64,000 nt of DNA, taken from Acidobacteriota bacterium (lineage in GTDB: Bacteria; Acidobacteriota; UBA4820; DSQY01). Below the pieces are notes generated by a model. That model made no database searches. It was not told the DNA's origin and saw only the letters and a list, made by a program, of their open reading frames with translations. Where the stretch lies: contig JAJYCJ010000004.1 in the NCBI GenBank assembly GCA_021778515.1, positions 7,092 through 71,091 of the forward strand. Direction: 5' to 3'. This document shows positions 10,553-13,757 of this stretch, piece after piece. A program made the translations under genes and the position numbers. Position 1 is the first letter of the stretch. The number at the start of each line of letters is the position of its first letter.

Positions 10553-10690
10553 CGCTGCGTGGTGAGCCCTTCTTTGCGTCTCGCGTCTCGCCCTCGCGCG
10601 GCACACCTTCAGAACCCCGCGCCAGGGCCTCCAAAGCACGGGCCAGTCCCGCATCGTCCAGCTCGTGGTGGGTGACGAAACGAATGGAGG
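10553..10690 (-). pseudogene. Decayed duplicate of the 3' end (~25 codons plus 3' flank) of the threonine-aldolase gene at 12726-13757
   Basis: The minus-strand translation [24 protein letters not shown] matches [26 protein letters not shown] of the intact gene. Nucleotide identity to 12672-12805 is ~80%, with a 1-nt indel that removes the stop. Table ORF 10350..10703(-) is this fragment fused to junk. Confidence 0.7.
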
Positions 10691-10818
10691 GAAAAGGGGT
10701 CACCCATTAGTCGGCCCCTGTCAACAGGCGGACTTCCATCTTGGCGGCCTTTGCCCTTAGCCGCACTCCTCTTGCCCTTTGCACAGGGCCAGGCGGGGAG
10801 GGAGGGTCAGGGGAGGGA

Positions 10819-10878
10819 GGGTCAAGTCTTCACTGTTAGCGTCTCGGATCACCAGCCCTGAAGACCTGGCCGCGATTT
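10819..10878. repeat. Direct repeat R2 (~57 bp), second copy at 12408-12470
   Basis: caagtcttcactgttagcgtctcggatcaccagccctgaagacctggccgcgatt versus caagtcttcactgtgagcgtctcggaccactaaccctaaagacctggccccgatt, about 85% identity. The first copy is preceded by a tandem gggagggagggtca x2. Confidence 0.7.
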
Positions 10879-10989
10879 TGCGCTCCTCGACCCCTTACCC
10901 TGTCCTGCCTTCCCCCGCGTCCTTCGCGTCTCCTTGGTGAATTCTTCTGCCCCTGTGCGTGTTTCTCAGTCTGAAAGGGAGAGAACACC

Positions 10990-11442
10990 ATGGGAACGTG
11001 CAGCATCCGTCACGAAGTGGGGATCAAGGCGTCGCCGGAGGCGGTCTACGGGGCGCTGACGGAGGTCGAGACGCTGGCGGCCTGGTGGACCTCGGACACC
11101 CGCGGCGAGGGCTCGACGGTCGGGGGCGTGCTGGAGTTCTGGTTCGGCGGCTTCTGCCAGGCCTTCGAGGTGGTGGAGCTTCGGCCCGGAGGGCTCGTCC
11201 GCTGGAAGGCCACCCGGAAGGAGACCCTGGAGGAGTGGGCGGGGACCGAGGTCAGTTTCGCCCTGAGCGCCGACGAAGCCCAGTGCTGGGTGGAGTTCGC
11301 CCATTCGGGATGGCGCGAGGACACGGAGTTCTTCGCCCACTGCTCGACCAAGTGGGCGGTCTTCATGCTGAGCCTCAAGGACCTCTTGGAAACGGGCAAG
11401 GGCCGTCCCGCGCCCGACGACGTGCCGATCAACCACGATTGA
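10990..11442 (+). CDS. SRPBCC-superfamily protein (AHSA1 / activator-of-Hsp90-ATPase-like)
   Basis: 150 aa. The N-terminus IRHEVGIKASPEAVYGALTEVETLAAWW and the overall pattern match the AHSA1/START-like SRPBCC fold. Confidence 0.75.
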   Translation: MGTCSIRHEVGIKASPEAVYGALTEVETLAAWWTSDTRGEGSTVGGVLEFWFGGFCQAFEVVELRPGGLVRWKATRKETLEEWAGTEVSFALSADEAQCWVEFAHSGWREDTEFFAHCSTKWAVFMLSLKDLLETGKGRPAPDDVPINHD

Positions 11443-11617
11443 GCGGATGGAGGCCTTTGCGGCGTGATCGCGTGATCAAGAGATCAAAGGATCGGGGCGG
11501 GCCTTCGAAGAACCTCCCGCCCCCTGTTTTTCCACTGGCTTGCCCACCTGCTCGCCTCGAGACTGGGGAGGCGCGCCTGAGGGCAAAACGCAAAGGGCTC
11601 TGCGGGAGGTTGGAGCG

Positions 11618-12373
11618 ATGAGCGGGTTCGCGGCGACGAAATTCGAGTTCCGGCACCGTTTCTGGTTCATCTTCGCCATCTTCTTGATCGCGTACGAACT
11701 CGGCCACTTCTTTCCGGGCAACGCCGGCGCGGTCCTCGTGGGCCGCTTCGTCCCGAAGGGCTCACCCCTCTTCCCGTTCGGGCTGCACGCGCTCTTCGGG
11801 GTCGCGGCCCTGGTGGTTCTGGCGGGCGCTGCCCTGCGCACGTGGGGCACGGCCTACCTGAGCGCGGGGGTCATGACGGACCGCCGGCTGCACTCGGAGA
11901 GGCTCACGGCGGACGGGCCCTTCCGCTTCGTCCGAAACCCCCTCTACATCGGGCTGGTCCTGATGGCCGCAGGCCTGAGCGCGACGACCGACGTCCCGGG
12001 CGGGGTCGTGCTAGTTGTTCTCATGGTTCTCTTCGTCCTGCGTCTCGCCCTGCGGGAGGAGACCGGGCTGGCCGAGGCCCAGGGAGAGGCGTACGAGGCC
12101 TACCGGCGCCGCGTGCGGCGCTTCCTGCCATCGCTCCGGCCCCGGCTTCCAGCGTCCGGGGCCGCGCCCCTGTGGCGCCAGGCGTTCGTCGCGGAGTTCA
12201 TGGTGTGGTCCTTCGGCATCGCCCTGGTCGCCCTGGCCGTCAGCCTGAACGGGCGCCTCTTCTGGGAGGTCTTCGCCGTGGGGCTGGTCTCCGGGATGAT
12301 CACGTATTCCTTCCAGCGCCGGCGGACCCGGCCGGCCCCGAAGGCGGGAGGCGAAGAGCCCGACGCCGGGTGA
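11618..12373 (+). CDS. Isoprenylcysteine carboxyl methyltransferase (ICMT/PEMT) family membrane methyltransferase
   Basis: It has multiple TM helices and the family signature LTADGPFRFVRNPLYIGLVL (GPF/Y-x3-R-N/H-P-x-Y). The ATG at 11618 has a GGGAGG RBS 8 nt upstream; the table ORF starts further upstream at 11540. Confidence 0.75.
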   Translation: MSGFAATKFEFRHRFWFIFAIFLIAYELGHFFPGNAGAVLVGRFVPKGSPLFPFGLHALFGVAALVVLAGAALRTWGTAYLSAGVMTDRRLHSERLTADGPFRFVRNPLYIGLVLMAAGLSATTDVPGGVVLVVLMVLFVLRLALREETGLAEAQGEAYEAYRRRVRRFLPSLRPRLPASGAAPLWRQAFVAEFMVWSFGIALVALAVSLNGRLFWEVFAVGLVSGMITYSFQRRRTRPAPKAGGEEPDAG

Positions 12374-12407
12374 GGGAATAGGAAGAGCCAAGGGGGCCGT
12401 ACTGGTC

Positions 12408-12470
12408 CGGGATCAAGTCTTCACTGTGAGCGTCTCGGACCACTAACCCTAAAGACCTGGCCCCGATTCT
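12408..12470. repeat. Direct repeat R2' (partner of 10819-10878)
   Basis: See R2. Confidence 0.7.
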
Positions 12471-12510
12471 ATTTGGTTAGGGCGAATGCTCTCCTTCGAA
12501 GGCCCGCCCT

Positions 12511-12545
12511 CGTCCTCATCTCGGCATCTCCTCATCTCCTCATCT
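12511..12545. repeat. 8-bp tandem microsatellite CATCTCCT x4
   Basis: catctcgg catctcct catctcct catctcga. Confidence 0.6.
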
Positions 12546-12725
12546 CGACCTTCCTCCGTGGCCTCCGTGCCCTCCGTGGTAAATTCCATTTTCATGGGCC
12601 CGAATCGCGCTCTGGAGAGCGCTCCTACAGGGCTTTCGAGAGCCGTGTTTTCCTCTGTGTCCTCTGCGTCTCTGTGGTGAATCCGTTTCCTCGCGTCCCG
12701 CGTCTCGCCCCCGCGCGGCACCCCT

Positions 12726-13757
12726 TCAGAACCCCGCCGCGAGGGCCTCCAACGCACGGGCCAATCCCTCGTCGTCCACGTCGTGGTGGGTGACGAAGCG
12801 GATGTGATCGGGCGGCAGCACGTGGCAGAGGACCCCGCGGGCCTTCAGGCCTTCCCCCACGCGCTGGGCGGTCAGGGGAGCTTTCACGCGGGTCATGACG
12901 ATGTTGGTCTGGACGGTGGCCATGTCCACCTCGAAGCCCGGCGTGGCGGCCAGGTGCTCCGCGAGCGAGCGCGCCCGCCGGTGGTCCTCGGGCAGGAGCG
13001 GCAGGATCTCCTCCAGGGCCACCAGCCCCGCCGCCGCCAGGATTCCCGCCTGGCGCATGCCGCCGCCGAGCATCTTGCGGACCCGCCGCGCCTCGTCCAC
13101 GAAGGCCCGGCTGCCGCAGAGGAGGGAACCGACGGGGGCGCACAGCCCCTTGGAGATGCAGAACATGACCGAGTCGAAGGGCTCGGCGAGGGCCCCCGCC
13201 TCCACCCCGAGAGCGGCGGCCGCGTTGAAGATCCGCGCCCCGTCGAGGTGGCTGGCCAGGCCGTTTTTCGCCGCCACCTCTCCGATCGCCCGCGAGGCCT
13301 CCACGCCCATCACCGTGCCGCCGGCCAGGTTGTGGCTGTTCTCGGCCGCCACGAGGGAGGTGCGCGGCAGGTAGTAGCTCGCCGGCCGGATCGCCGCGGC
13401 CACCCGATCGGGGTCCAGCACGCCGCGCGTGCCCGGAACGGGCCTCGGAAGAACACCCGAGAAAGCGGCCATGGTGCCGGTCTCGATGTTGTAGATGTGG
13501 CACTGCGCCTCGCAGATCACCTCGTCGCCCGGCCGGGTGTGGACCTTCACGGCGGTCTGGTTGGCCATGCTGCCCGAGGGCATGAAGAGCGCCGTCTCCT
13601 TCCGCATGAGTCCGGCCGCCAGCTCCTGGAGCCGGTTGACCGTGGGATCTTCACCGTAGACGTCGTCGCCCACCTCCGCCTCCGCCATGGCCCGGCGCAT
13701 GCGGGGAGTGGGGCGCGTCACGGTGTCCGAACGCAGATCGACGAAGTGGTCGGGCAT
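12726..13757 (-). CDS. ltaE: Low-specificity L-threonine aldolase (PLP-dependent, beta-eliminating lyase family)
   Basis: From the ATG at 13757: [44 protein letters not shown]... The N-terminus [11 protein letters not shown] and overall length (~343 aa) match LtaE. The table ORF carries a 54-aa spurious N-terminal extension across the octamer repeats. Confidence 0.8.

Follow-up and report, generated by a model that had tools for sequence, protein, structure and literature searches.

Two core defence hotspots of Pseudomonas aeruginosa, cDHS1 and cDHS2, are flanked by core genes, lack an integrase and possibly move by homologous recombination (PMC10250203), and in effector-immunity arrays of type VI secretion systems (T6SS) and in Rhs arrays old 3' ends are displaced, according to a published model, by homology-facilitated illegitimate recombination (PMC5361080). 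Duplicated gene ends are also known from integrated elements: e14 is accompanied by a 163-bp icd' duplicate (PMC6379469), and cis-mobilizable elements (CIMEs) of 1.2-13 kb, which carry cargo without recombination genes, are, together with gene-free microCIMEs, frequent residents of housekeeping-gene 3' ends (PMC7563491). Here, we analysed a 64,000-nucleotide stretch of contig JAJYCJ010000004.1 from an Acidobacteriota bacterium (hereafter the window), in which the 3' end and flank of a threonine-aldolase-family gene, called ltaE, occur twice in direct orientation, 2.1 kb apart. An earlier note on this DNA had taken the duplication for the footprint of site-specific integration of an island into the gene end. 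Comparison with ~25 related Acidobacteriota loci, including those returned by a scan of GTDB species-representative genomes with ltaE (60 loci, Acidobacteriota metagenome-assembled genomes), led us to favour, with some reservation, a different reading, namely that the segment is a recombination scar in a hotspot for accessory and defence genes that varies between strains and is bordered by the convergent genes pilT and ltaE, where homology-anchored, partly illegitimate recombination displaced the old gene end.

The duplicated ltaE terminus

The repeat consists of a gene-proximal copy A, which completes ltaE, and a second copy A', a frameshifted orphan located ~2.1 kb away in direct orientation. 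Their parts and the two segments adjoining A' are listed below (L-numbers denote related loci).

10505-10546, minus strand: Z, conserved arm between the putatively displaced gene end and the variable cargo, common to L001 and L002
10547-10686, minus strand: A', putatively displaced ltaE terminus, 140 nt
10547-10608, minus strand: 3' flank of A' with heptamer repeats and a degenerate C motif
10609-10611, minus strand: stop remnant of A'
10612-10686, minus strand: last 25 codons in A'
10687-10794: Y, 108 nt, exclusive to window-type alleles; Y/A' junction at 10686/10687
12663-12804, minus strand: A, functional ltaE terminus and 3' flank (terminus 12726-12804, stop 12726-12728)
12663-12725, minus strand: 3' flank of A with heptamer repeats and C motif C1

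Alignment of A' with A revealed 121 identical positions in 144 columns (84%; local BLAST E = 1e-33), divided into 66/76 (87%) for the coding-derived part and 55/68 (81%) for the stop codon and 3' flank, and ~65 nt of non-coding sequence past the stop codon are still similar at near the identity of the coding part. The homology begins abruptly at 10686/12804, within coding sequence; its longest exact run measures 17 nt (10663-10679 = 12781-12797), and a 1-nt deletion in the coding part of A' causes the frameshift. Within the 64-kb window this is the only such pair, repeat A being found at no further position, and both A and the second repeat R2 described below are unique to this locus across the window and 81 loci (1.26 Mb in all). 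The earlier note, which had placed the duplication at 10553-10690 and 12672-12805, was right about its existence and orientation, and missed its limits by only a few bases.

Because the similarity runs ~65 nt past the stop, we read both copies as genuine gene ends, not as an element-borne mimic; an element merely restoring a gene end would have no reason to copy the non-coding flank. A' in particular has the look of a normal ltaE end of the clade, since its identity to intact termini from several lineages is 89-92%; L001 and L088 come closest (91-92%), and L089 matches at 91%, as L088 does. It is the sole ltaE fragment in the hotspots examined, which contain no pilT fragments, and it is absent from L001, L002 and L069-L079. 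In L001 and L002 the flank and Z are present and the 75-nt coding piece, Y and the left R2 are missing; the window is ~300 nt longer there (a 295-nt difference in the alignment). The complete arrangement was found in eight independently assembled contigs (L061-L068) from different samples and assemblers, which excludes an assembly artefact; A' and Y are 99-100% identical among them, and all eight encode the SRPBCC protein identically.

A strain-variable hotspot between pilT and ltaE

The genes of the hotspot and its borders in the window are as follows.

2823-3902, plus strand: pilT (T2SSE ATPase), one border core gene (Pfam T2SSE on the identical gene in L061)
3903-6289: pilT-proximal part of the inserted region, with a MITE-like (miniature inverted-repeat transposable element-like) element, a tandem repeat and a 224-aa open reading frame (ORF)
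6290-10459, plus strand: STAND NTPase, 1389 aa, LmuA-like N-terminus, low-GC cargo of the variable slot
10990-11442, plus strand: SRPBCC/AHSA1-family protein, 150 aa, 88% identical to the L001 copy
11618-12373, plus strand: PEMT/ICMT-family membrane methyltransferase, 251 aa
12726-13760, minus strand: threonine-aldolase-family gene "ltaE" (Beta_elim_lyase), the other border core gene

The name ltaE is approximate, because the best NCBIfam match is a GntG-family aldolase; the E. coli LtaE equivalog scores below cut-off.

In L006, L008 and L009 (67-73% ltaE protein identity) pilT and ltaE are convergent and only 34-50 nt apart, compared with a gap of 8.8 kb in the window (3903-12725). Judged from these relatives, in which the earlier note had proposed to look for the ancestral empty site, direct adjacency of the two convergent genes can be taken as the established ancestral state. 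Among genomes with 94-97% ltaE identity, five allele types were distinguished.

Allele 1, empty (L007, L080): 147-160 nt spacer that has nothing in common with the other alleles
Allele 2, near-empty (L069-L073, L077-L079): ~600 nt of non-coding sequence
Allele 3 (L002): X, C motif, second heptamer/C-motif flank, 45-nt Z, then AbiE toxin-antitoxin cargo, AbiEii with DUF6922
Allele 4 (L001): SRPBCC-ICMT, the same flank, Z, then defence-type cargo, then the 224-aa ORF
Allele 5, window type: SRPBCC-ICMT, with the STAND NTPase in the cargo slot

The near-empty alleles show the order (GAGACGC)n array, C motif, segment X with a REP-like (repetitive extragenic palindromic) palindrome, second C motif, spacer, one R2 and allele-specific sequence. 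The L001 cargo (55-60% GC) comprises a GmrSD_N/HNH restriction enzyme, an EcoRI-like methylase (type II restriction-modification), a caspase and a ThsB-like TIR protein, and across all alleles the cargo has a GC content of 54-60% vs 66-72% for neighbouring genes. The STAND gene itself (54.5% GC vs 65% for the window) lies just outside the bracketed segment, as the earlier note had observed, and its description of the bracketed 2.1 kb as encoding only SRPBCC and ICMT, with no integrase, also agrees with our gene calls. Cargo is swapped in the slot from Z (~10505) to ~6045, which does not overlap the segment between A and A', and the stretch 4340-6045 is common to the window and L001. SRPBCC-ICMT occurs in one lineage besides the window (L001) and is absent from most close relatives; its GC content of 68-70% matches the host.

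The site has pilT on one side and ltaE on the other in L002, L006-L009, L069-L073 and L077-L080, and L001 ends before pilT. Because five allele states occur between the same core genes, the site is a core-gene-flanked, strain-variable hotspot for defence-type cargo. Of the serial integration and decay at a hotspot proposed in the earlier note, the repeated addition and decay of foreign DNA is borne out by the empty, near-empty and other-cargo relatives and by the accessory character of SRPBCC-ICMT, while integration of the integrase type is not supported. Relatives with the same duplication and no island content were sought, and none was seen; no remnants of the L007-type spacer were found in the occupied alleles.

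Two further observations concern the sampling of the site. The locus is rearranged in L010 (8682-10783; 79% ltaE identity), where the two genes share one strand and pilT precedes ltaE instead of converging with it. The metagenome contigs L003, L074-L076, L088 and L089 end within a few hundred bases after ltaE, a pattern that coexistence of several hotspot alleles in the populations sampled would predict.

Short repeats of the intergenic block

The segment between A and A' contains a second direct repeat and several shorter motifs.

10795-10824, plus strand: perfect 15-nt x2 tandem repeat GGGGAGGGAGGGTCA
10819-10877, plus strand: left copy of R2, the more diverged one, 88-93% identical to every other R2
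10926-10942, minus strand: C motif copy C3, ATTCACCAAGGAG, upstream of SRPBCC
12409-12468, plus strand: right copy R2', 91-96% identical to the single R2 of near-empty alleles and orthologous to it
12479-12662: native intergenic block, including segment X
12479-12516: palindrome in the native block
12513-12579: 8-nt and 9-nt tandem repeats in the native block
12572-12584: C motif C2
12605-12628: REP-like palindrome GTAGGAGCGCTCTCCAGAGCGCGA in segment X

Both the second direct repeat and the third short similarity near 10930 and 12670 reported in the earlier note were recovered. The two R2 copies share 53 of 60 positions (local BLAST E = 9e-15), and R2 was found nowhere else in the 64-kb window. 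The third similarity corresponds to the C motif GCGTCTCTGTGGTGAAT, which occupies 10926-10942 and 12666-12682, and a weaker match falls within the STAND gene (10185); these three matches compare with 0.15 expected, and 0 of 100 shuffles reached three. Its opposite-strand form ATTCACCACRGAG has three copies (10930, 12572 and 12670), every one within the hotspot.

The near-empty alleles carry a single C-spacer-R2 block with 91-95% identity to the right copy of the window and 77-79% to the whole left block. Because this block is orthologous, R2 and the C motif are native intergenic sequence, and R2 is not an element end. The native block itself is 92-93% conserved in L002 and L069-L073, and L077-L079 show ~82% over a longer stretch that includes it. 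The window has the C-spacer-R2 block on both sides of SRPBCC-ICMT, and L001 keeps the ltaE-side R2 only.

Other roles for these repeats were considered and rejected. A structured element or attC-type function of R2 found no backing, as its hairpin is not conserved: L069 alone has a good one (z = -2.3), and neither copy in the window retains it (z = +0.75 and -1.6); by-eye inspection revealed no GTTRRRY/RYYYAAC pair of an integron attC site, and no integrase was found. Dispersed repeats were dismissed for R2 and A, both unique to the locus, with only the 24-nt REP-like palindrome recurring (L007, L080), and genome-wide families for the heptamer array and C motif, whose good matches within the window cluster at this locus. 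The repeats are also not tRNA or small RNA integration targets, because an Rfam search (E up to 1) of 4000-15000 gave no match and the closest tRNA gene is 43 kb away. A scan of 10400-12800 for consensus promoters and terminators yielded nothing above shuffled sequences.

The REP-like unit at 12605-12628 consists of GTAG followed by the palindrome GCGCTCT-CC-AGAGCGC and is 100% conserved in hotspot alleles with segment X; in relatives it also occurs at a second, unrelated locus (L007 16942-16965, L080 7238-7261). The heptamer array (GAGACGC/TAGACGC)n directly 3' of the ltaE stop varies from ~2 to ~12 copies among alleles (window 12689-12712 and 10576-10598; L001 11053-11105; L069 11050-11150 and 11560-11625), and in L069 it is also present, inverted, after the pilT stop.

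Recombinase searches and signs of homologous recombination

An integrase near the locus, which the earlier note had recommended looking for, was found neither in the 64-kb window nor in 87 loci; all recombinase searches cover sampled neighbourhoods and not whole genomes. Pfam, PHROGs, PADLOC and NCBIfam scans of hotspot ORFs revealed no recombinase in 3903-12725 or in the L001 and L002 cargo, and precomputed Pfam annotation of the called genes of L061, which is 100% identical to the window over the ten proteins compared, contained zero mobility genes. Phmmer searches with XerD and resolvase queries gave zero matches among the 6172 ORFs of 100 aa or more that the window and 87 loci contain. Scans of IMG/VR with ltaE and the R2 core returned no match, with ltaE next to no provirus, and a PLSDB blastn search with 10460-12725 returned none either. 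No integrative and conjugative or integrative and mobilizable element (ICE/IME) using ltaE as target was seen among the 60 loci of the ltaE scan, IMG/VR and PLSDB, and no tRNA or tmRNA gene borders the site. A precise empty attachment site for the bracketed 2.1 kb is absent among the relatives examined: the empty alleles L007 and L080 lack any flank sequences, L002 lacks SRPBCC-ICMT and keeps the first flank, X and the second flank, and the near-empty alleles keep the first flank, X and R2.

Comparison of the window with L007 and L080 revealed 91-100% identity along ltaE and only 67-71% in its last 45 nt (window 12726-12770; L007 10986-11032), with the protein conserved. Occupied and empty alleles are thus separated by a recombination breakpoint within the final 45 nt of the gene, and L069 and L077 are mosaic inside ltaE as well, so that homologous recombination evidently operates at this site. 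In the window, L001 and L002 the arm formed by the second flank and Z is 18-21% diverged (79-82% identical) vs 7-8% for X, which suggests that the arms travel with the cargo.

Further features of the locus

The STAND protein gave weak Pfam matches to nSTAND5, nSTAND1 and nSTAND3, all below cut-off, and a PADLOC match to LmuA (E = 5.8e-8). The closest homologues, from many different phyla, do not exceed 48% identity, and no donor of the STAND cargo was found. The family consists of single proteins of ~1380 aa in records labelled Planctomycetes, Verrucomicrobia, Cyanobacteria, Chloroflexi and Bacteroidota, most of them without Pfam annotation.

Homologues of the ICMT protein with 79-84% identity occur in unrelated contexts without SRPBCC or R2. 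In L085-L087 they are single genes in unrelated chromosomal contexts, with DNA similarity to the window ending within ~20 nt of the ICMT gene ends; the samples of L085 and L087 also yielded hotspot alleles.

The 224-aa ORF (5272-5946, plus strand) lies at the edge of the variable slot here as well as in L001 (17457-18131; 92% identical) and has no match in Pfam, PHROGs, PADLOC or NCBIfam; the small ORFs of the hotspot had none in Pfam and PHROGs, the only libraries scanned with them. Upstream of the 224-aa ORF lies a 42-nt tandem repeat (4875-5033; 3.8 copies, 70% matches), possibly an iteron-like or a regulatory feature; its homologous counterpart in L001 (18331-18631) is internally repeated too. 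The MITE-like element measures 390 nt (4011-4400), has terminal inverted repeats TGTCCAAAA at 4014-4022 and 4386-4394, and is flanked by a 12-nt direct repeat ACCGCGAAGGAC at 3999-4010 and 4401-4412. L077-L079 have an uninterrupted target site at this position, and L007, L070, L071, L077 and L080 carry a copy in opposite orientation between a DegT-family gene and pilT, where the window has none. Upstream of ltaE, 8-nt and 16-nt tandem repeat arrays (GATTGAGC and related) fill 13799-13976, and the intergenic regions around the locus show an unusual wealth of short tandem repeats in general.

Discussion

The duplicated gene end may be explained by a linear DNA molecule from a related chromosome that carried an ltaE end with its own downstream sequence and, at one of its sides, found a homologous partner in ltaE or else in the conserved arm next to the cargo. 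The other side would have been joined non-allelically or illegitimately, at the Y/A' junction. As an outcome, ltaE would have retained a complete 3' end (A), and a second, once genuine terminus (A' with its heptamer repeats and Z), either resident or incoming, would have been left 2.1 kb away, where it is frameshifted and decaying beside the STAND cargo. A preceding event of broadly similar type could have duplicated the C-spacer-R2 block around SRPBCC-ICMT, and later the defence cargo beyond Z may have been swapped between lineages via ordinary homologous recombination in the conserved arms. Natural transformation is a plausible source of the linear DNA, because the window encodes a Competence/ComEC-domain gene, pilT and a prepilin peptidase. 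The repeats, the hotspot with its allele series and defence cargo, the breakpoint in ltaE and the failure to detect a recombinase gene are direct results; the illegitimate or one-ended join, the direction in which it took place and the succession of events are inferred, and we hold the account as a whole to be slightly more likely than not.

Several points weigh against it. A donor allele of the type ltaE-flank-Z-STAND was not found among the loci compared, and left- and right-anchored pairing cannot be told apart. To explain why the ltaE' coding piece is missing from L001 and L002, one has to assume a 295-nt deletion common to both or joins that arose independently, and illegitimate joins are rare events. 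In addition, the sequence right after R2 differs in four alleles, so that the end of R2 is a junction and would also fit a site-specific one, and a recombinase acting in trans is possible, given that the negative searches cover sampled neighbourhoods.

The site-specific integration put forward in the earlier note would make A and A' the attL and attR sites of a CIME-like or e14-in-icd-like element whose integrase was lost or acts in trans; this element would have brought a replacement gene end, its 2.1-kb remnant would have kept only SRPBCC and ICMT, and later elements would have piled up. Such a history would account for the direct repeats bracketing cargo, for a gene-adjacent copy that completes the frame in the manner of icd' at e14 and for the 17-nt exact core at the start of the A repeat, it would draw on the frequency of cargo-only CIMEs and microCIMEs at housekeeping 3' ends, and it would give a meaning to the R2 junction in four different alleles. 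It is difficult to reconcile, however, with the lack of an integrase in all three occupied alleles and in 87 loci, with the absence of provirus or plasmid matches (IMG/VR, PLSDB), and with the fact that no allele equals a precise loss of the bracketed segment and thus an attB site. Since the repeat similarity also reaches 65 nt into the non-coding flank, R2 is native intergenic DNA and not element DNA, and the swap slot lies outside the bracket, we regard integration as a possible but rather unlikely origin. A related idea, a dedicated cassette-exchange system in which a recombinase encoded elsewhere in the genome recognises the modules repeated at the locus (heptamer array, ATTCACCACRGAG motif and R2 palindrome), appears improbable to us; if true, it would represent an unrecognised site-specific system loading defence genes next to ltaE in Acidobacteriota.

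The same short direct repeats that fill the hotspot could have mediated unequal exchange, and a segmental duplication confined to this genome, in which heptamer arrays and C motifs served for unequal crossing-over or slippage and divergence and partial deletion came afterwards, would produce A' and R2 with no foreign DNA; the native character of R2 and the C motif and the host-like GC content of SRPBCC-ICMT (68-70%) are consistent with it. Yet A and A' differ by 16%, compared with a divergence of ~5-9% in the flanking core between the window and L001, L002 and L007, from which A' is nevertheless absent. Beyond the shared 140 nt the copies run into unrelated sequence, X in one case and Z in the other, which calls for several further events, and SRPBCC-ICMT is missing in most close relatives. 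For these reasons we consider a local origin quite unlikely. Chance similarity or an assembly chimera, which might be suspected from the metagenomic source and the abundance of simple repeats, has a negligible probability in view of E-values of 1e-33 and 9e-15, repeats that are unique in the window and the same structure in eight contigs.

Regarding its use, the pair of pilT and a threonine-aldolase-family gene serves as an anchor marking a defence-gene hotspot in an uncultured Acidobacteriota clade and could help to find new anti-phage systems in metagenomes of soils and sediments. The 1389-aa STAND NTPase, all matches of which are below cut-off, and the 224-aa ORF fall outside the functional families of the libraries searched.

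Comparison with known systems

As in the case of e14 and phage 21 in icd, the target 3' end is duplicated (~140 nt here) and the proximal copy keeps the gene intact (PMC6379469), and as in CIMEs, formed within the accretion of ICEs, IMEs and CIMEs at housekeeping 3' ends, a cargo-only remnant lies between repeats (PMC7563491). Unlike those elements, the locus has no detected integrase or related autonomous element in the neighbourhoods sampled and no precise empty site, and its repeat enters the non-coding flank, with a similarity that is not confined to a short identical core or a restored gene part, as would be the case for an e14-type element.

The likeness to T6SS effector-immunity and Rhs arrays (PMC5361080) is closer in terms of mechanism, which is inferred in both: a conserved upstream gene acts as homology anchor, incoming DNA is inserted beside it, the old 3' end is orphaned downstream in direct orientation, and no integrase is apparent. 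The pilT-ltaE site differs in having one orphan only, in its anchor, a pyridoxal phosphate-dependent aldolase and not a polymorphic toxin with immunity genes, and in the lack of apparent selection for variable C-termini. The locus appears to work like these displacement arrays and is not a member of them.

With cDHS1 and cDHS2 (PMC10250203) the site shares conserved flanking core genes, variable content including empty sites, low-GC defence-type cargo and the lack of a consistent mobile-element hallmark, transfer by homologous recombination of the flanks having been proposed there. This type of hotspot is already known and would hold nothing surprising for specialists on genomic islands. Differences are found in the host, uncultured Acidobacteriota, in the anchors, pilT and a threonine-aldolase-family gene, and in the much smaller islands (0-8.8 kb) without a border tRNA or tmRNA gene. 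The pilT-ltaE site furthermore preserves a probably displaced gene end that would record one loading event. As one of few direct sequence records of loading in an integrase-free hotspot, it points to homology-anchored recombination that pushed the old end downstream, as proposed for T6SS and Rhs arrays.

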